DNA of 64,000 nt from Anaerolineae bacterium (GCA_041751455.1 JBGSXK010000217.1:69526-133525); one strand, 5' to 3'. Counted from the stretch's first letter, positions 14,654 through 23,000 are shown. Made by a program: numbers and translations. Notes: generated by a model not told the origin, from the letters alone.

Positions 14654-15775
14654 ATGATACACTTAAACAGATGCCTATGGTTCGTGTTGGTTTTCGGCCT
14701 GCTGCTCACTGGCCTGCCCGCCAGGGGCCAGCCCCACCCCTTCCCTGATGGTGTGGTCATGCCGCTGGATATGTTTTTGCGTTTGCGTGCCACACCCAGC
14801 ACCGAAAGCGCCATACTCGACCAGCTTGCCAGCGGCACCACACTCCGTATTATTGGTCGCACGGCGGATAATACCTGGCTGGAAGTCGAAACTGAGCGTT
14901 ACAGTACGGGCTGGGTTTACGCAGACTATGTACAGGTGTTTGTCGATCTGGAAGGGGTAATGGTGCGCACAGATGCAGGGGCAGCGCTGGATTATGGGTC
15001 GGTGGTAATAGGAGATGTCGAAGCAGCCCGCGCAGTTTTCCTGCGTGGCCAGCAGATGGGCAGTCGGGCAGATGTATTCTCGAAGGTTGGCGACAGTATC
15101 ACTGTCTCCGGCCACATGCTGCATCCCATCAGCCGAGGCCTGTATCAGCTTGGTGATTTTATTTATTTGCAACCAGTGATTGATTATTTTTCAGCCGCGA
15201 CTGCCCGCAGCAGCGATTCATTTGGCAATACCTCGTTGGCCGCCGGGGTGGGCTGGTCGGCGGCAGCGGTCCTGGACTCCGCCTACGCCGATAGCGAACT
15301 GTGCCTGCCGGATGAGCCTCCGCTTAGCTGCGAGTACCGGCTTGTGCGGCCAGCCCTGGCGCTGATTATGTTTGGCACCAACGATGTGGGTTATCGCCCA
15401 CCTGCTGCTTATCGTGCCGACTTGGAACGTATCGTGCAGATTTCAATCAATGCGGGTGTGCTGCCTGTCCTCAGTACACTTCCCCTGCGCGTGGGCTACG
15501 AAGCCCAGGTAGAGCAGTTTAACCAGATCGTGCGCGAAACCGCCCTCGCCCACCAGATGCCGCTGTGGGATTATGCCCGCGCGATGGCGACAGCAGGTCG
15601 CCTCGGCCTGGATGACGATGGTGTTCACCCCTCTATTCCGGCACGTGGCTACGAAGGCGCTGCCGATTTCCGCACCTGGAATCTGCACTCCGGTTATGTC
15701 CTGCGCAATCTCACGGCGCTGCATGTGCTGGATGTAATCTGGCGCGAGGTTATCATCCCCTCTGGCGAAGCCTAA
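14654..15775 (+). CDS. Secreted SH3b-domain / SGNH (GDSL) hydrolase-family protein, paralog 1
   Basis: Signal peptide MIHLNRCLWFVLVFGLLLTG. SH3b block LRATPSTESAILDQLASGTTLRIIGRTADNTWLEVE...GWVYADYV. SGNH blocks are KVGDSIT (I), MFGTNDV (III) and DDDGVHPS (V). Paralog of 23457-24596. Confidence 0.8.
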   Translation: MIHLNRCLWFVLVFGLLLTGLPARGQPHPFPDGVVMPLDMFLRLRATPSTESAILDQLASGTTLRIIGRTADNTWLEVETERYSTGWVYADYVQVFVDLEGVMVRTDAGAALDYGSVVIGDVEAARAVFLRGQQMGSRADVFSKVGDSITVSGHMLHPISRGLYQLGDFIYLQPVIDYFSAATARSSDSFGNTSLAAGVGWSAAAVLDSAYADSELCLPDEPPLSCEYRLVRPALALIMFGTNDVGYRPPAAYRADLERIVQISINAGVLPVLSTLPLRVGYEAQVEQFNQIVRETALAHQMPLWDYARAMATAGRLGLDDDGVHPSIPARGYEGAADFRTWNLHSGYVLRNLTALHVLDVIWREVIIPSGEA

Positions 15776-17493
15776 GCCTCCAGCACTTCTCTGCGCCATT
15801 TGTCGCGGTTCGCGCCGCGCGCGATCTTGCCGCTGGAGGTTTTCACCAGCCACTGCGCCCCCACCAGATGCACATAGCTGATCGTCACCGTCGTTTGCTG
15901 GGCCACCGCCTGCCGAATCGCCAGCCCGATCTGCCGCCGCGCTTCGGTATCATCTGCATCCACTTCGGCTACCACCGCGATGAGTTCTGTCCCCTCACGC
16001 TCATCATCGATCCCGAAAGCCACGACTCTGCCGGGATGCACCCCGGCTACCCCGTTTACAATCGCCTCAATATCCTGCGGGTAAACGTTCTTGCCGCCGT
16101 TGATAATCAGGTCCTTCGAGCGCCCGACAATATACACCTCACCCCCGGCCATATAACCTCTGTCCCCGGTCAGATACCAACCGTCCGCCGTGAACGGATT
16201 CAGGTCTGGACGTTGATAATAACCCGTCAGCAAACAACCGCTCTGAATAGCGATTTCGCCCACATAGCGCTCTGGTAATTCATGCCCCTGCCCATCCACC
16301 ACCTTGACCTGCGTCCCTTGGATAGGCGCACCGCACGAAACTACACTGGCCGCTTCCGCGGCCTCCGTCTCAACAGGAACGGCGCGCAGGTCGTTTTCCA
16401 GCGCGTGACGCTGCACCCAATCGACACGACTGCCCTGCCCTGGTGGAGTCTGTGTCACGGCGAAGACATTCTCGGCCATTGCATAGCTGACCGCCAGCAT
16501 CTCCGGCCTCACACCATGCGGCGCGAAACGCTCGGCAAATAGGGCGTGACTCTCTGCCCGTACAGGCTCGGAACAGTTGATGAATGCTCGCATACTCACC
16601 AGCGATACACCCTCTAAATCTCGCTGGCGGATGCGCCGGGCACAGTGGTTATAGGCGAAGTTCGGCAGCCAGCATAATGTCCCGCCGTAATCATGAATGG
16701 CACGCAGCAGCATGGCCGGATGACGCACCCAATCAAACGGTGACATCAGCACCAGTGGCACACCTTGCACCAGCGGCAGCAGAAACCCGGCGATCAACCC
16801 CATATCATGATACAGCGGCAGCCAGCTCACGATCACATCATGCTCGTTCAGAGCAATCGCCGCGCTGTATGCCGCCAGTTGATTCAGCACTGCCACATGA
16901 CTCAGTGCCACGCCTTTTTGCAGCCCTGTGGTCCCGCTGGAATGTTGCAAAAAGGCAATATCATGTCCGTTTACTGCCTGCCTCTTTCCCCATTGTGGGA
17001 GAGCGGCTTGGGCTGAGGGAGAAATATCCCCATACACTGCGCATCCGACTACCTCTGCCAGTTCCGGCGCGAACTCGTCTGTGGTCAGGACGGCTTTCAC
17101 GTCCGACAGGCGCACCAGTTCGGCCATGCTCTGCATATAAATCGCCGGGTCCAGCTTTTCTGTCAGTGTGGGAAACATCGACGGAATCGCGCCGATCCAC
17201 AGTGCTCCCCAGAACGCGTAAATGCTTTCGAGGTTCTGCGTATGTGCGATCACCACCAGGTCGCGCGCGCCGACTCCCCTGCCCCGCAGTGCGTCAGCAT
17301 AATGTAGGACAGCCGTACGAAAATCCGCCCGTGTAACGGTAATCGCCGCTGCGTCGGTTTCCAGGTAGATGATGGCTGGCGCGTTTATATCTGCGCTTGT
17401 CAGTGTGACCGCGTCGAGCAGGGAGTGGAGCTTTACAGGAGGCTGAGAGGTATGCATGGCAGTTATTTTTATAGGCTGATAAATGCCGCTCAA
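15772..17493 (-). CDS. Fatty-acyl-AMP ligase (FAAL-type adenylate-forming enzyme)
   Basis: AMP motif FLQHSSGTTGLQKGV. FAAL-typical WLPLYHDMGLI and LPNFAYNHC. C-terminal YLTGDRG...GRSKDLII and SSGKI. The start is uncertain (TTG 17493 or ATG 17457). Confidence 0.85.
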   Translation of the reverse strand: MSGIYQPIKITAMHTSQPPVKLHSLLDAVTLTSADINAPAIIYLETDAAAITVTRADFRTAVLHYADALRGRGVGARDLVVIAHTQNLESIYAFWGALWIGAIPSMFPTLTEKLDPAIYMQSMAELVRLSDVKAVLTTDEFAPELAEVVGCAVYGDISPSAQAALPQWGKRQAVNGHDIAFLQHSSGTTGLQKGVALSHVAVLNQLAAYSAAIALNEHDVIVSWLPLYHDMGLIAGFLLPLVQGVPLVLMSPFDWVRHPAMLLRAIHDYGGTLCWLPNFAYNHCARRIRQRDLEGVSLVSMRAFINCSEPVRAESHALFAERFAPHGVRPEMLAVSYAMAENVFAVTQTPPGQGSRVDWVQRHALENDLRAVPVETEAAEAASVVSCGAPIQGTQVKVVDGQGHELPERYVGEIAIQSGCLLTGYYQRPDLNPFTADGWYLTGDRGYMAGGEVYIVGRSKDLIINGGKNVYPQDIEAIVNGVAGVHPGRVVAFGIDDEREGTELIAVVAEVDADDTEARRQIGLAIRQAVAQQTTVTISYVHLVGAQWLVKTSSGKIARGANRDKWRREVLEA

Positions 17494-17567
17494 GATACAT
17501 CAACCCGCCAGTCAATGACAGAGCCGACTTGTGCTACAATCAGGCAAACGAGTGATTGAGGTTTGAT

Positions 17568-18131
17568 ATGGCTGTCCAACTGAAACCGCAGATAACACAG
17601 GCTGACTTCGAAGCCTTTATCCATCTGCCAGAAAACCTTGACCGCACATTTGAACTTGTCGGCGGGGAGATCATCGAAGTGCCTTCAAATCCGTTTGTAT
17701 CCAAAATCGCGGCGAAAATTATCCTTTTCCTGGGGATGTATCTGCTGAACAACGACAGCGGCCATGTGACCGGGGAGGCCGGGGGCTACAGGGTCAATGG
17801 CGAGCTGTACGCGCCGGATGTGGCGTACATCTCCTATGCCCGCCAGCCCGAACTGGCGCACAAGGGTTATAATCCCAATCCGCCGGAAATCGCTGTCGAG
17901 GTTATCTCCGATGCGGACAGCCGTGATGAGCAGGCGACCCTGCGCCGCAAGCTGGCGAATTACCTGGCGGCGGGGGTGCTGGTCTGGGTGGTCAATCCCT
18001 ATGATCGCTTTATCGAGGTATATCTGCCGGGTAAACCTGTAGTGGTGCTGGACGAGAACGGCACGCTGGACGGCGGCGAGATTCTGCCGGGCTTCACCCT
18101 GCCCGTGAAGGACATCTTCCCGAAGGGGTAG
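17568..18131 (+). CDS. Uma2-family (DUF820) endonuclease-fold protein
   Basis: FELVGGEIIEVPSNP...APDVAYI...PEIAVEVISD...KLANYLAAGVLVWVVNP matches the PD-(D/E)xK pattern of Uma2 proteins. ATG 17568 lies 6 nt after GAGG. Confidence 0.8.
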   Translation: MAVQLKPQITQADFEAFIHLPENLDRTFELVGGEIIEVPSNPFVSKIAAKIILFLGMYLLNNDSGHVTGEAGGYRVNGELYAPDVAYISYARQPELAHKGYNPNPPEIAVEVISDADSRDEQATLRRKLANYLAAGVLVWVVNPYDRFIEVYLPGKPVVVLDENGTLDGGEILPGFTLPVKDIFPKG

Positions 18132-18280
18132 AAAGTTTCTGGCTTAGGGTGATTCCCTCCGTTTCTCATGACTCTGAATTTTGGCGGTTCCCTCACAAGC
18201 CATCCATAACCAAACTCCATTAACCCAACTCCATTTTATGTTACTCTATGACCCGGCGTTAAATAAAATTCGTCTGCTTC

Positions 18281-19345
18281 ATGTTTCAAAAAGAGACTAC
18301 CATGCCCACCCTGCCCCATACCACCCTCACCCGTCTTATCCGCGATATCTTCGCCGCTGCGGGCACACCCGATGACATCGCGCAATACGTCGCGGAATCG
18401 CTTGTCACCACCAACCTCACCGGCCACGACTCGCACGGCATTATTCGCGTCAAAGGCTATGTCGTACAGATTCAGAATGGGTCGATCAGGCCGGAAGCCC
18501 TGCCGGTGATCGAGCGGCAGTTTGGCGCAATCGCGGTACTCAATGGACAGTGGGGTTTCGGGCAGGTGACAGCGCGCGAAGGGGCAGGGCTGGCGCGCGA
18601 GATTGCCGCCCAGCAAGGCATCGGCTGTGTCGCACTCAGCGATACCAACCATATCGGACGGCTGGGTGAGTACGCCGAGATGATCGCCCGCGCGGGAATG
18701 GTCGGTATCGTCATGACCAGCGGCACGATGAGCCTCCCGTCAGTGACACCCTACGGTGGCGCAGAGCCGCTCTTTGGCACGAACCCGATGGCGTGGGGAG
18801 TCCCACTTGGCGCGTCCCAGCCGCCGCTGCTGCTGGACTTCGCTACCGCTGCGGTTGCCAACGGCAAGGTGAAAGTCGCGCTGGACAAAGGCGAACCTTT
18901 CCCTGAAGGGATGCTGCTGGATAAGGATGGCTTCGCCACCACCAACCCGGCAGATTTCTATGGCGGCGGGATGCTGCTGCCCTTTGGGACTTACAAAGGT
19001 TATGGCCTCAATCTGATGATGGAAATTGTGCCGGTGCTTTTGAGCGGCTTCGTGCCCATCATGCTGGCAGGCTTCAAACCCGGTAATCCTACCCTGATCT
19101 TCGCGCTCAATGTCGAGGCCTTTACCTCACCCCAGCGCTTTGAGCGGGAAGCCGTCGCACTGCTTCAGCGCGTTAAGCAGGTTAAACCCGCTGCGGGCTA
19201 TGACGAAGTGCTGCTGCCCGGCGAGAAAGAATCGCGTATCATGACCGAGCGGCTGGCAAACGGCATCCCCCTGCCGGAGAAAACCTGGGCGGATTTAGTG
19301 GCCTGCGGGGCAGAGCTGGGGCTTGAGGTTAGCAGCTACACCTGA
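18281..19345 (+). CDS. Ldh_2-family (malate/L-lactate/sulfolactate dehydrogenase-like) oxidoreductase
   Basis: GHDSHGIIR, NHIGRLGEYA and FGTNPMAWGVP are family-typical. ATG 18302 is an alternative start. Confidence 0.8.
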   Translation: MFQKETTMPTLPHTTLTRLIRDIFAAAGTPDDIAQYVAESLVTTNLTGHDSHGIIRVKGYVVQIQNGSIRPEALPVIERQFGAIAVLNGQWGFGQVTAREGAGLAREIAAQQGIGCVALSDTNHIGRLGEYAEMIARAGMVGIVMTSGTMSLPSVTPYGGAEPLFGTNPMAWGVPLGASQPPLLLDFATAAVANGKVKVALDKGEPFPEGMLLDKDGFATTNPADFYGGGMLLPFGTYKGYGLNLMMEIVPVLLSGFVPIMLAGFKPGNPTLIFALNVEAFTSPQRFEREAVALLQRVKQVKPAAGYDEVLLPGEKESRIMTERLANGIPLPEKTWADLVACGAELGLEVSSYT

Positions 19346-19393: not shown

Positions 19394-19642
19394 TTATAGG
19401 TCGCGCATGATCCGCGCGATGATCTGATCGAAGGTGTCCATCTTCTCGACTGTCAGATCAGGGTCAGGGATATAGACGTTGAACTCGTTTTCGATGTACA
19501 CGGCCAGTTCCGCCAGCGCGAACGAATCCATCAATCCGTTAGTGATAATACCCTCGCTGTCGCTCAGCGGATAATTTGCATCGCGGATCAGTTCGCGTGT
19601 GATATACCCGCGCAGCTTCTCACGAATTGCACCTTCATCCAT
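19394..19642 (-). CDS. Acyl/peptidyl carrier protein, DltC-like
   Basis: 82 aa with phosphopantetheine site GLMDSFALAEL. DltC, as I remember it, has GIIDSF. Its ATG overlaps the msrA stop by 8 nt. Confidence 0.8.
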   Translation of the reverse strand: MDEGAIREKLRGYITRELIRDANYPLSDSEGIITNGLMDSFALAELAVYIENEFNVYIPDPDLTVEKMDTFDQIIARIMRDL

Positions 19643-20177
19643 GCGCGGGCGCTTTCAGGCGATCCAGATATAGGCTGCGGAACTTCCGCACTTTGGGCTG
19701 CACTATCATCCGGCAGTAAGGCTGATTCGGGTTGTTAGCAAAGTATTCCTGATGATAATCCTCCGCCGGGTAAAACACATCCAACGGTACGATTTCGGTC
19801 ACAATCGGGTTATCCCACAGTTGCGCAGCGGCTTTGATAGCTTCCTGCGCGGTCTGCTGCTGCGCCGGGCTGTGATACATAATCGTTGAGCGGTATTGTG
19901 TGCCGAAATCTGGCCCCTGCTGGTTGAGTGTAGTCGGGTCATGCACCGTGAAAAACACATCCAGAATATCCCCGTAGCTCACGATTTCGTTATCAAATGT
20001 GATCTGCACCACCTCGGCATGACCAGTGTCCCCGTTGCAGATCTGCTTATAGCTCGGGTTGGGCACATGACCGCCTGCGTAACCGGATACGACCTCCTCC
20101 ACGCCCTTCAGTTCATCATAGACGGCCTCGACACACCAGAAGCATCCTCCGCCTAATGTTGCAATTTCCTTTGCCAT
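19635..20177 (-). CDS. msrA: Peptide-methionine (S)-S-oxide reductase
   Basis: Active-site GGGCFWC, then GYAGG...NPSY..VC.G.TGHAEVVQI. ATG 20177 lies 6 nt after GGAGAG. Confidence 0.9.
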   Translation of the reverse strand: MAKEIATLGGGCFWCVEAVYDELKGVEEVVSGYAGGHVPNPSYKQICNGDTGHAEVVQITFDNEIVSYGDILDVFFTVHDPTTLNQQGPDFGTQYRSTIMYHSPAQQQTAQEAIKAAAQLWDNPIVTEIVPLDVFYPAEDYHQEYFANNPNQPYCRMIVQPKVRKFRSLYLDRLKAPAHG

Positions 20178-20288
20178 GTTGACTCTCCAGACATTCAAAC
20201 TTCTGCTTCATTATAGACGTGCATGATTAACAGACCATTACAGCACTCAGGCTTTTAAGCATTGCGCATTTCAACCTTACCCGTGAGG

Positions 20289-21431: not shown

Positions 21432-22876
21432 CAAGCCAACCCCAGCAGCCGCACAAACACTGACCATGCCAGACCCACATCCGGCAGCGCGAACCACACC
21501 CAGCCCAGTGTCACGAAATGGAACGTCAGCAGCACACCACCCACTGTATACGCGGCCTTCAGGCGTGGACGTTCACCCAGCCCGCGCACCCAGGCGCGGG
21601 TGCGGTCTGCCCACAGCTTATGCCCGAACAGCGCCAGCCCATGCCACATCCCCCACATGAAAAACGCCCAGGTCACGCCATGCCACAGGCCAATCACAAT
21701 CATCGTCGTCAGGTGGCAGATGAGCATGATTACATCATTGGAGGGGCGCTGCCTGCGCCGCAGCAGTGAACGAGACAGCGGCGAAAAAATATAGAAGCGC
21801 ACCCACTGTGTCAGGGTCATGTGCCAGCTTTGCCAGAAGGCGGTGATATTGGGCTTCAGGTAGGGTCGGTCGAAGTTCTCCGGCAGGCGGATTCCCAGCA
21901 GGATGCCAATGCCAATGGCAATATCGGTATAACCGCTGAAGTCGAAAAACAGGCGAAAGGCATAAGCATACAACAGCACCCATAACGCCAGCACCGATTC
22001 GCTCTGTTCCGCCTTTGTCGCGTCCAGCGCGATCAGCGCCAGTGAATCAGCGATCACAAATTTCTTGCATAGCCCCACGACAATACGCCCCGCCCCTTCT
22101 GTGATGCGTGCCGCGTCCAGCCCGTGCAGTTTTGGCAGCGCCACATCATCGACGATAAAACGTCCGGCGCGGTCAATCGGCCCGGCAGTATAGGCCGGGA
22201 AGAAGATCACATAAGTCAGGTATTCACGCAGGTTAAGCGCGGGCAGGATACCAGTCTGATGATCGCGCAGGGTGTGAATCAGCCGAAAGGCGACATACGA
22301 AAAACCCAGCCAGCCAATATCCACGATACTGGCGAGGCTTGTATCCTGCCCCACCCCGGCGCGCAGTATTGAACTTATCCCCTGCGCCAGCGGTTCGGTC
22401 TTGATGACTACAAACAGCAGCACCAGGGCGATGATGCCCACCTGATTCCAGCGTGGCCAATCACGCCAGCGGCGCGTGACCAGCAGCGTGAGCGCGGCAA
22501 TTAAAATCAGCACCAGAATCACGGTCGTGATTTCCGGCGGGCGTGAAGGCGTGAGTCGGACTTCCGGCGCGAGATAACGATTAGCCGCCAGCGCCAATAC
22601 CAGCCCGATTACCACCCCTGACGTAAGACGATCTTCACGTCCCAGGTAAGGCTCATGTCCTTCCGGTTGGCGAACGATCAGCCAGCACAACAGGGTAATA
22701 ATAAGTGTCAGCGTCGGCAGCCAGAAATCGAGGAAACGGATATTCAGGGTAGGTTGCAGCCAGTAAATGGCGATCACGCTGGCAATCATCAAAGCCCAAC
22801 CGCGCCAGCGCGGCGGGCAGAAGGCCGCGTACAGCAGTGCGCCAACGCAAAAAATGCCAATGTCGAGCAGCGTCAC
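21431..22876 (-). CDS. MBOAT-family membrane O-acyltransferase (DltB/AlgI-like)
   Basis: Polytopic protein with the signature FWQSWHMTLTQWVRFYIF carrying the invariant His, followed by GLWHG. GTG start. Confidence 0.9.
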   Translation of the reverse strand: MTLLDIGIFCVGALLYAAFCPPRWRGWALMIASVIAIYWLQPTLNIRFLDFWLPTLTLIITLLCWLIVRQPEGHEPYLGREDRLTSGVVIGLVLALAANRYLAPEVRLTPSRPPEITTVILVLILIAALTLLVTRRWRDWPRWNQVGIIALVLLFVVIKTEPLAQGISSILRAGVGQDTSLASIVDIGWLGFSYVAFRLIHTLRDHQTGILPALNLREYLTYVIFFPAYTAGPIDRAGRFIVDDVALPKLHGLDAARITEGAGRIVVGLCKKFVIADSLALIALDATKAEQSESVLALWVLLYAYAFRLFFDFSGYTDIAIGIGILLGIRLPENFDRPYLKPNITAFWQSWHMTLTQWVRFYIFSPLSRSLLRRRQRPSNDVIMLICHLTTMIVIGLWHGVTWAFFMWGMWHGLALFGHKLWADRTRAWVRGLGERPRLKAAYTVGGVLLTFHFVTLGWVWFALPDVGLAWSVFVRLLGLA

Positions 22877-22880
22877 TGGC

Positions 22881-23000
22881 CTAGAATCCCTGATAAATCC
22901 AGGTGGGAACGCTGTCTGTCGTGAGGATAATGAGCAGAATCACGATCAGGCACAACCCCACCGCAAACAGGTTTTCACGCGAAAAAATGCGGCGCACCAC
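22881..23000 (-). CDS. 39-aa single-pass micro-protein with C-terminal WIYQGF, DltX-like (not in ORF track)
   Basis: Hand translation gives MVRRIFSRENLFAVGLCLIVILLIILTTDSVPTWIYQGF*. The GTG sits directly after the lipoprotein TGA, with GAGG 8 nt upstream. The TAG lies 4 nt before the MBOAT GTG. The C-terminal [FW]-I-Y-x-x-F matches the conserved DltX tail as I remember it. Confidence 0.6.
   Translation of the reverse strand: MVRRIFSRENLFAVGLCLIVILLIILTTDSVPTWIYQGF

Follow-up and report, generated by a model that had tools for sequence, protein, structure and literature searches.

Genes at the micro-ORF locus

The DNA analysed here is a stretch of 64,000 nucleotides from an Anaerolineae bacterium (GCA_041751455.1, JBGSXK010000217.1:69526-133525), hereafter called the window. 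On its minus strand, it carries a micro-ORF (a very short open reading frame) of 39 codons that is lodged between a lipoprotein gene and a gene encoding a DltB-like membrane-bound O-acyltransferase (MBOAT), which is in turn followed by the gene of a membrane-anchored SGNH protein. Genes for a small acyl carrier protein (ACP) and for an adenylating enzyme of the fatty-acyl-AMP ligase (FAAL) type lie further downstream, and all features are collected in Table 1. An earlier sequence-only reading of the window had taken the micro-ORF product for a DltX-like single-pass microprotein serving the adjacent MBOAT/SGNH pair, and our analysis supports this core reading by the conserved Tyr-containing end of the family, by the DltB-like MBOAT that lacks such an end of its own, and by the SGNH fold of the third partner. 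The same reading had missed the ACP and the adenylating enzyme of the window; genomes other than this one have them in collinear order with the micro-ORF.

Read on the minus strand, positions 22881-23000 give MVRRIFSRENLFAVGLCLIVILLIILTTDSVPTWIYQGF followed by a stop, the coding strand opening with GTG GTG CGC and closing with TTC TAG, and the product is (M)VRRIFSRENLFAVGLCLIVILLIILTTDSVPTWIYQGF. Translation can start either from the GTG at 23000 or from an alternative in-frame GTG at 22997, which yields a product of 38 aa; both choices are equally possible, and homologues show both lengths. The TGA of the lipoprotein ORF (23003-23001) abuts the GTG at 23000, with a GAGG ribosome-binding site (23012-23009) located 8 nt 5' of the micro-ORF start, while the TAG (22883-22881) is followed by 4 nt (GCCA) and then by the GTG of the MBOAT gene at 22876. 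The reading frame and these spacings had been described in the same terms before, and re-reading of the sequence confirmed them. Tyr36 is encoded by TAT at 22895-22893. The size of the ORF alone is not above chance, since the 12 kb around it contain 125 ORFs that reach 30 aa or more. Across the window, 1788 stop-to-stop segments span 20 codons or more, and the micro-ORF is the only one of them with an ending of the form [FW]xYxxF. The scan for promoters and terminators returned fewer sites than were found in shuffled sequence and is uninformative.

With a single membrane pass, fewer than 50 aa, a basic N-terminus and a short tail, the 39-aa peptide follows the DltX-type plan. The residues R3, R4 and R8 precede a hydrophobic core at residues 11-27, and the AlphaFold2 model of the peptide (predicted local distance difference test [pLDDT], 83) shows a helix spanning 8-30 that is followed, after a break at P32, by a short turn at W34-Q37. 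This agrees with the basic N-terminus, the one hydrophobic helix and the tail ending in WIYQGF that were put forward in the sequence-only reading. The tail reads TDSVPTWIYQGF-COOH and, according to the positive-inside rule, would be located outside, with the N-terminus inside. An F-S-R-E-N motif on the predicted cytoplasmic side (codons F6-N10, window 22971-22985) is strongly conserved and has no counterpart in DltX, and the same applies to C17, D29 and P32, which are near-invariant in the microprotein family. One possibility is that these conserved residues contact the carrier protein or the MBOAT.

The best PDB matches of the MBOAT are the DltB structures 6BUG (3e-46) and 8JEM, at E values of ~1e-46, and its only NCBIfam match is to DltB TIGR04091, at 231 bits, which is under the 375-bit equivalog cut-off. 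The MBOAT-DltB alignment reaches to ~20 residues from both C-termini; in the 6BUG alignment, GLWHG of the MBOAT is aligned with GFWHG of DltB, and H399 is invariant among 12 syntenic MBOATs. None of the 45 full-length MBOATs adjoining the micro-ORF displays a terminal FxYxxF, the VRLLGLA end of the window MBOAT likewise being without it. For the SGNH protein, a PDB sequence search gave no match even at E<=10, so the fold was assigned by means of AlphaFold2 and Foldseek; a family scan gave a weak GDSL match. The AlphaFold2 model, obtained with a 60-sequence alignment, has a pLDDT of 86.6 and a transmembrane (TM) helix at 16-40, and Foldseek retrieved SGNH esterases at a probability of 1.00, with DltD (7DXM, 3BMA) providing the longest alignments and the top query TM-score (0.41-0.42). 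The residues G102-D-S104, D356 and H360 are invariant in the 60 homologues. The MBOAT/SGNH pair has the conserved catalytic His and the Ser/Asp/His, the proposed Tyr-shuttle motif being supplied in trans by the micro-ORF. The presumed acid/base pair of the SGNH protein is spaced D-S-P-V-H (D-x-x-x-H), which is not the canonical block V D-x-x-H, and this spacing is also invariant in the 60 homologues.

The carrier protein matches PP-binding, ACP and DltC models weakly, all DltC/ACP scores being below cut-off (for the DltC model, 28 bits vs a cut-off of 68). The adenylating enzyme has long-chain ligase and fatty-acyl-AMP ligase as its best NCBIfam subfamilies (351 bits), whereas the models of DltA and of amino-acid adenylation domains fit it poorly (112 bits). 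Its best PDB matches are FAALs, namely 3KXW (4e-61), 7R7E-G, 3PBK (3e-58) and FadD32, with no DltA among the PDB matches at E<=1e-20. The pathway context had previously seemed unrelated to Dlt, but its layout is Dlt-like (X-B-D-C-A), with an ACP and an adenylating enzyme present; the enzyme itself is FAAL-type and not DltA.

Table 1. Features of the micro-ORF cluster, with positions counted from the first letter of the window; L001 is a collinear locus described in the next section
Feature	Position	Strand	Properties
Micro-ORF, 39 codons + stop	22881..23000	minus	Predicted single-pass microprotein: basic N-terminus, helix, C-terminal tail
C-terminal hexapeptide codons W34-I-Y36-Q-G-F39	22884..22901	minus	Proposed acyl-shuttle motif
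DltB-like MBOAT, 481 aa	21431..22876	minus	PF03062, 3e-24; WHG histidine H399; C-terminus ...VRLLGLA
Membrane-anchored SGNH protein, 380 aa	20289..21431	minus	DltD-like operon position; ATG overlaps MBOAT stop (ATGA)
Acyl carrier protein, 82 aa	19394..19642	minus	D39-S40 phosphopantetheine-site motif; 59% identity to 83-aa gene of L001 (tblastn)
FAAL-type adenylating enzyme, 573 aa as listed, start uncertain	15772..17493	minus	67% identical to enzyme of L001 operon
Lipoprotein, 130 aa	23001..23393	minus	Lipobox ...VAAC; NTF2/SnoaL-like domain; DUF4440 weak, Rv0361_Cterm 40 bits
Secreted SH3_3 + SGNH (GDSL_2) protein, 396 aa	23457..24647	minus	Second SGNH component; present in most syntenic loci
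Second SH3-SGNH paralogue, 382 aa	14627-15775	plus	Convergent with FAAL gene, overlaps its end
msrA	19635-20198	minus	ACP start overlaps msrA end by 8 nt
Ldh_2 and Uma2 genes	17556-19345	plus	Interposed between micro-ORF core and FAAL
Histidine kinase, 1278 aa	24680-28516	minus	Multiple GAF domains (HisKA_3/HATPase_c); immediately upstream of cluster

Conservation of the micro-ORF and its gene neighbourhood

A word-seeded homologue search over 5.8 billion proteins produced alignment A1, whose 80 matches are 35-67 aa long, are 64-92% identical to the window peptide and all end in WIYQGF. Besides this hexapeptide, E9, N10 and P32 are invariant across the alignment, and one of the homologues, from a Candidatus Promineifilaceae metagenome-assembled genome (MAG), is recorded under the name hypothetical protein. 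The HMMER profile search, carried out on 1.84 billion cluster representatives, identified 189 representatives at E<=1e-3, 116 of these at E<=1e-10, and in nearly all 189 the profile match extends to the last residue. Among the best 150 of the 189 representatives, the terminal hexapeptide is WIYQGF in 125, and the other endings include WIYQAF, WIYQNF, WLYQGF, WIYQGY, FIYQAF, FLYEGF, FIYEGF and others. In the 145-sequence alignment A2, the Tyr of the motif is the sole invariant column, every other motif position being subject to variation, and the consensus of the family ending is [WF(LG)]-[ILV]-Y-x-x-[FY]-COOH.

When genomes were scanned, one per species, with a degenerate pattern selecting P[QLT]WIYQGF, the micro-ORF was present in at least 521 species-representative genomes. 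The 80 loci listed come nearly all from MAGs of Anaerolineae-type Chloroflexota, among which Anaerolineales, Aggregatilineales, Thermoflexales, Ardenticatenaceae, Levilinea and Ca. Roseilinea are represented. The ORF is intact at every locus, with the stop codon placed straight after the hexapeptide in 86/86 distinct DNA versions. Over the last 35 codons of these versions, nonsynonymous (pN) and synonymous (pS) variation amount to 0.22 and 0.71, respectively, with a ratio of 0.31; entropy is greatest at third codon positions, and in the motif region four codons are in use for Pro, three for Ile, two for Tyr, two for Gln, four for Gly and two for Phe. The invariance of the motif in the scanned loci is partly circular, since the scan pattern required P[QLT]WIYQGF, and the evidence that is independent of this pattern consists of the synonymous turnover and the profile search. 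Because it is conserved as a protein with synonymous codon turnover, the micro-ORF is a real gene under protein-level selection. The sequence-only reading had named a conserved micro-ORF with a terminal Tyr motif and codon-level conservation as a check, and such an ORF was found, as the 189 representatives and the pN/pS ratio show. One contig of 1994 bp (CAZTLS010000134.1, L047), which carries the micro-ORF and an MBOAT gene, is labelled 'uncultured Pleurocapsa sp.', a cyanobacterium; mis-binning of this 2-kb MAG contig is more likely than a true occurrence outside Chloroflexota.

Gene linkage was inspected in genome loci L010-L089, 70 of which have at least 2 kb of downstream sequence. An MBOAT gene starts at most 150 nt downstream of the micro-ORF in 53 of these 70 and at most 1.5 kb downstream in 6 more (59/70), the spacing ranging from 4 nt to >1 kb, and a variant ending in FLYEGF (P0216) lies 1 nt before an MBOAT. 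Among the 44 loci that have an MBOAT and whose downstream sequence extends for 7 kb or more, 29 contain a FAAL gene and 21 an ACP gene. The lipoprotein gene is a conserved companion: in 43/77 loci its end is no more than 200 nt upstream of the micro-ORF, and in others it is found elsewhere in the operon. Locus L001, on a contig of 1.8 Mb, is a collinear operon of micro-ORF, MBOAT, SGNH, an 83-aa ACP, a 560-aa AMP-binding FAAL, SH3-SGNH and lipoprotein, and tblastn located all of its genes in the window; L013 likewise has X-MBOAT-SGNH-ACP-FAAL in collinear order.

No MBOAT lies within 10 kb of the micro-ORF in 10/70 loci. In 8 of these 10 (L021, L029, L042, L048, L051, L069, L070 and L077), the micro-ORF is placed directly behind a FAAL gene, which in L029 (9971-10111) overlaps it stop-to-start in the sequence ATGA, and unrelated hypA/hypB/hypF genes follow downstream of the FAAL-plus-micro-ORF units. 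These eight loci link FAAL and micro-ORF independently of the MBOAT, and they imply a two-gene unit of FAAL plus shuttle, with the MBOAT encoded elsewhere in those 8 genomes. A gene for a PMT_2 (GT-C, ArnT/PMT-like) glycosyltransferase (GT) is inserted between the MBOAT and SGNH genes in L006 (11813-14056), and GT2, GT4, PMT_2 and nucleotide-sugar genes flank further loci, with GT2/GT4 in L008 and L090.

Comparison with DltX and other acyl relays

In Firmicutes, DltX (PF12459; operon dltXABCD) shuttles D-alanine from DltB to DltD by means of the Tyr in its C-terminal FIYNEF. This hexapeptide had been given in the sequence-only reading and is correct, as it matches both the Bacillus thuringiensis DltX sequence, MERLKEIWSRPLTQWVAKTVYYLAILFALLWLYGFHDTNTSTFIYNEF, printed in PMC5541007, and alignment A3. 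The FXYXXF acyl-shuttle motif has been defined, the evidence for D-alanine on the Tyr of DltX reviewed, and the C-terminal Tyr of PatA shown to carry acetyl (PMC12148441); furthermore, the C-terminus of DltX was shown to bind DltD (PMC13653941). The microprotein resembles DltX in its small size (39 aa here vs ~48), one TM helix, basic N-terminus and aromatic-x-Y-x-x-F-COOH tail, and, like DltX, it is encoded by a separate gene accompanied by those of a motif-less DltB-type MBOAT, a membrane-anchored SGNH protein, a small carrier protein and an adenylating enzyme. However, it has W at motif position 1, the family-specific FSREN and a tail that is 2-3 residues shorter. Unlike dltX, the micro-ORF is located directly before the MBOAT gene (X-B-D-C-A or lipoprotein-X-B-D) and not before dltA. 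The cluster also departs from the dlt operon in that its adenylating enzyme is FAAL-type, not DltA, its carrier is no more than weakly DltC-like and its host belongs to the Chloroflexota, class Anaerolineae. Teichoic acids are not known from this class.

A terminal hexapeptide with a Tyr acyl intermediate and a relay from MBOAT to SGNH protein are also features of O-acetylation of the PatA/PatB, AlgI/AlgJ/AlgX and WssH types, and alginate acetylation shares with the window cluster the presence of two SGNH-like proteins. In the PatA/AlgI type, however, the motif is carried by two extra C-terminal helices of the MBOAT and the donor is acetyl-CoA, whereas here the motif resides on a separate microprotein and the donor is apparently a FAAL-loaded acyl carrier protein. 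OatA and the AT3-SGNH acyltransferases are comparable in that a Tyr ester is handed from a membrane acyltransferase to the Ser of an SGNH domain (PMC12148441), but they differ in their AT3 membrane fold, in the location of the Tyr on an internal loop and in the fusion of the domains in one polypeptide. The dlt-like operons of Dickeya and Pectobacterium start with a small gene whose product has DltX topology and no sequence similarity to DltX (PMC5541007). Such Gram-negative operons are an earlier example of small proteins of the DltX type that stand outside the DltX sequence family, with position and topology kept. Unlike the window cluster, they retain the DltA-type activation of D-alanine.

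A proposed detached acyl shuttle and its alternatives

We think that the microprotein is the detached acyl-shuttle arm of the DltB-like MBOAT, spanning the membrane once with its N-terminus in and its C-terminus out, and we assign to this interpretation, which is built on analogy with DltX, a probability of roughly 0.7. Tyr36 is the proposed acyl acceptor, and the cargo, given a donor that would be acyl-ACP made by the FAAL, is probably not D-alanine but an organic acyl group, fatty or otherwise. Modelled on DltX/DltB/DltD and PatA/PatB as to topology, chemical steps, acyl identity and acceptor, the route would begin with the FAAL-type enzyme adenylating a carboxylic acid, which is probably not an amino acid but a fatty or other acid, and transferring the acyl group to the phosphopantetheine arm of the ACP. 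The acylated carrier would then dock at the cytoplasmic face of the MBOAT, the conserved His of which would pass the acyl group through the membrane to the Tyr36 hydroxyl of W-I-Y-Q-G-F. The flexible tail, with P32 as its hinge, would carry the esterified Tyr over to the anchored SGNH protein, where Ser104 would accept the acyl group and hand it to an extracytoplasmic acceptor. A glycan of the cell wall or surface is the probable acceptor, as suggested by the SH3_3-SGNH protein, the NTF2-like lipoprotein and the frequent neighbouring glycosyltransferases, and the SH3-SGNH protein and the lipoprotein may assist in this last step. The PMT_2, GT2 and GT4 neighbours hint that the acceptor could be a glycan or a glycoprotein.

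A number of observations weigh against a detached acyl shuttle of this kind. The Pfam DltX model PF12459, which detected B. thuringiensis DltX as a positive control at 2e-21 and 75.7 bits, does not match the window peptide even at E<=10 and matches 0/145 family members, FIYEGF and FLYEGF variants included; the expectation that a DltX-family HMM (hidden Markov model) would recognize the peptide is thus not borne out. The homologue search with B. thuringiensis DltX returned the B. cereus group alone, and the hhalign comparison of A2 with the resulting narrow, shallow DltX alignment of nine short peptides covers the last 19 columns only, with both C-termini in register and WIYQGF over FIYNEF, which speaks for the shuttle, but at a weak score (P=0.0018, probability 14.6%), which speaks against it. 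Motif position 1 is W in ~94% of family members, where DltX has F, and both the pattern-based locus retrieval and the profile search favour sequences that retain the motif. About one third of the loci are without FAAL and ACP in the 10-kb flank, and 2/70 have neither MBOAT nor FAAL near the micro-ORF, which in L027 (10122-12311) precedes two tandem GDSL/SGNH paralogues with no MBOAT and in L020 (8578-8724) is an orphan flanked by recJ and an alpha-amylase gene. In the window itself, msrA and two opposite-strand genes part the ACP and FAAL genes from the micro-ORF core. For tunnels of the DltB type, D-alanyl and acetyl are the only groups whose passage has been demonstrated.

Pfam and NCBIfam scans of the peptide returned a sub-threshold OppC_N transmembrane match alone, which is noise, and PDB searches with the A1 profile and with a Staphylococcus aureus-like DltX sequence gave no match, DltX chains being apparently not retrievable in that way. 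We deem the microprotein probably DltX-like in function and not a demonstrable member of the DltX family; the analogy of function is drawn from motif, topology and gene context.

The microprotein could instead be a non-catalytic structural or assembly subunit, a 'glue' of the MBOAT/SGNH complex, whose tail serves as a binding epitope and is never acylated. Many small membrane proteins stabilise complexes, and the TM segment and FSREN, in which E9 and N10 do not vary across A1, match the tail in their degree of conservation and have no DltX counterpart. A role of this sort leaves aside that the sole universally invariant residue is the Tyr, which is found at the same position from the free C-terminus as in DltX and PatA, where it is a proven acyl carrier (PMC12148441), and that the partner MBOATs are exactly those without a motif of their own; we consider it unlikely. 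We regard as more improbable still that a true DltX orthologue, with D-alanine as cargo and a teichoic-acid-like acceptor, was moved into Chloroflexota within a genuine D-alanylation pathway. The complete Dlt-like architecture (X, MBOAT, anchored SGNH, carrier and adenylating enzyme), the weak DltC matches of the carrier and DltB being the sole NCBIfam match of the MBOAT would all agree with such a transfer, but the enzyme fits FAALs (351 bits; 3KXW and 3PBK at ~1e-60) and DltA/amino-acid domains poorly (112 bits), no PF12459 match is found in the family, and the MBOAT and carrier scores for DltB (231 vs 375) and DltC/ACP are below their cut-offs.

The tight packing of the micro-ORF, with TGA and GTG adjoining on the upstream side and 4 nt separating it from the MBOAT gene, and the abundance of short ORFs in GC-rich DNA could be read as signs of a regulatory leader or upstream ORF, or of a chance ORF, that couples MBOAT expression while its peptide is irrelevant. 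This is effectively refuted by the amino-acid conservation over hundreds of genomes with synonymous turnover, and it is also at odds with the 8 loci in which the micro-ORF is detached from the MBOAT behind a FAAL gene, with a spacing that varies from 4 nt to >1 kb and with the unique [FW]xYxxF ending among 1788 segments; we give it next to no credence. Two further candidates were rejected: a frameshifted N-terminal piece of the MBOAT, in view of the stop after F in 86/86 DNA versions, the variable spacing and the 8 loci without an adjacent MBOAT, and a precursor of a RiPP (ribosomally synthesized and post-translationally modified peptide) or of a signalling peptide, in view of the TM helix, the lack of modifying enzymes nearby and the tight linkage to an acyl-transfer operon.

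Full-text literature searches found no description of a Chloroflexota system or of a FAAL-ACP-MBOAT-SGNH system. The principle of a Tyr acyl shuttle has been known since 2023-2025, and the idea itself is not new. The current model distinguishes two kinds of MBOAT/SGNH systems, Dlt, with a separate DltX and a D-alanine carrier protein, vs all others, in which the motif is fused and the donor is an acyl-CoA, and non-Dlt MBOAT/SGNH pathways have been stated to be without a DltX-like microprotein (PMC12148441, Journal of Biological Chemistry 2025). The microprotein family would represent a third configuration, in which a separate microprotein is combined with a FAAL-loaded carrier protein, suggesting a general association of split shuttles with carrier-protein donors. 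The FAAL-type enzyme in place of a D-alanine one points to an undescribed cell-envelope acylation pathway. More tentatively, and with somewhat less than even confidence, we propose a class-wide, previously undescribed envelope-lipidation pathway of Anaerolineae, running from FAAL and ACP through the MBOAT and the microprotein Tyr to one or two SGNH proteins and finally to a wall or surface glycan. If true, this would be the first Dlt-type relay, carrier-dependent and with a split shuttle, that has a non-D-alanine cargo, and no split shuttle would have been known before outside dlt operons. The shuttle interpretation itself ties seven genes into one pathway and predicts that the envelope of Chloroflexota, which is poorly understood, bears an ester-linked and probably lipid-like modification, which mutation of Tyr36 should abolish. 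It also offers a testable function for an unnamed microprotein family that is annotated as 'hypothetical protein' or left uncalled in at least 521 species-level genomes; those examined are from an environmental class that is major but little studied.

Among the remaining genes of the neighbourhood, the 1278-aa histidine kinase, which is without conservation in the other loci looked at, is a possible regulator of the cluster. The second SH3-SGNH paralogue shares 28% identity with the SH3-SGNH protein of the cluster over 14783-15757.

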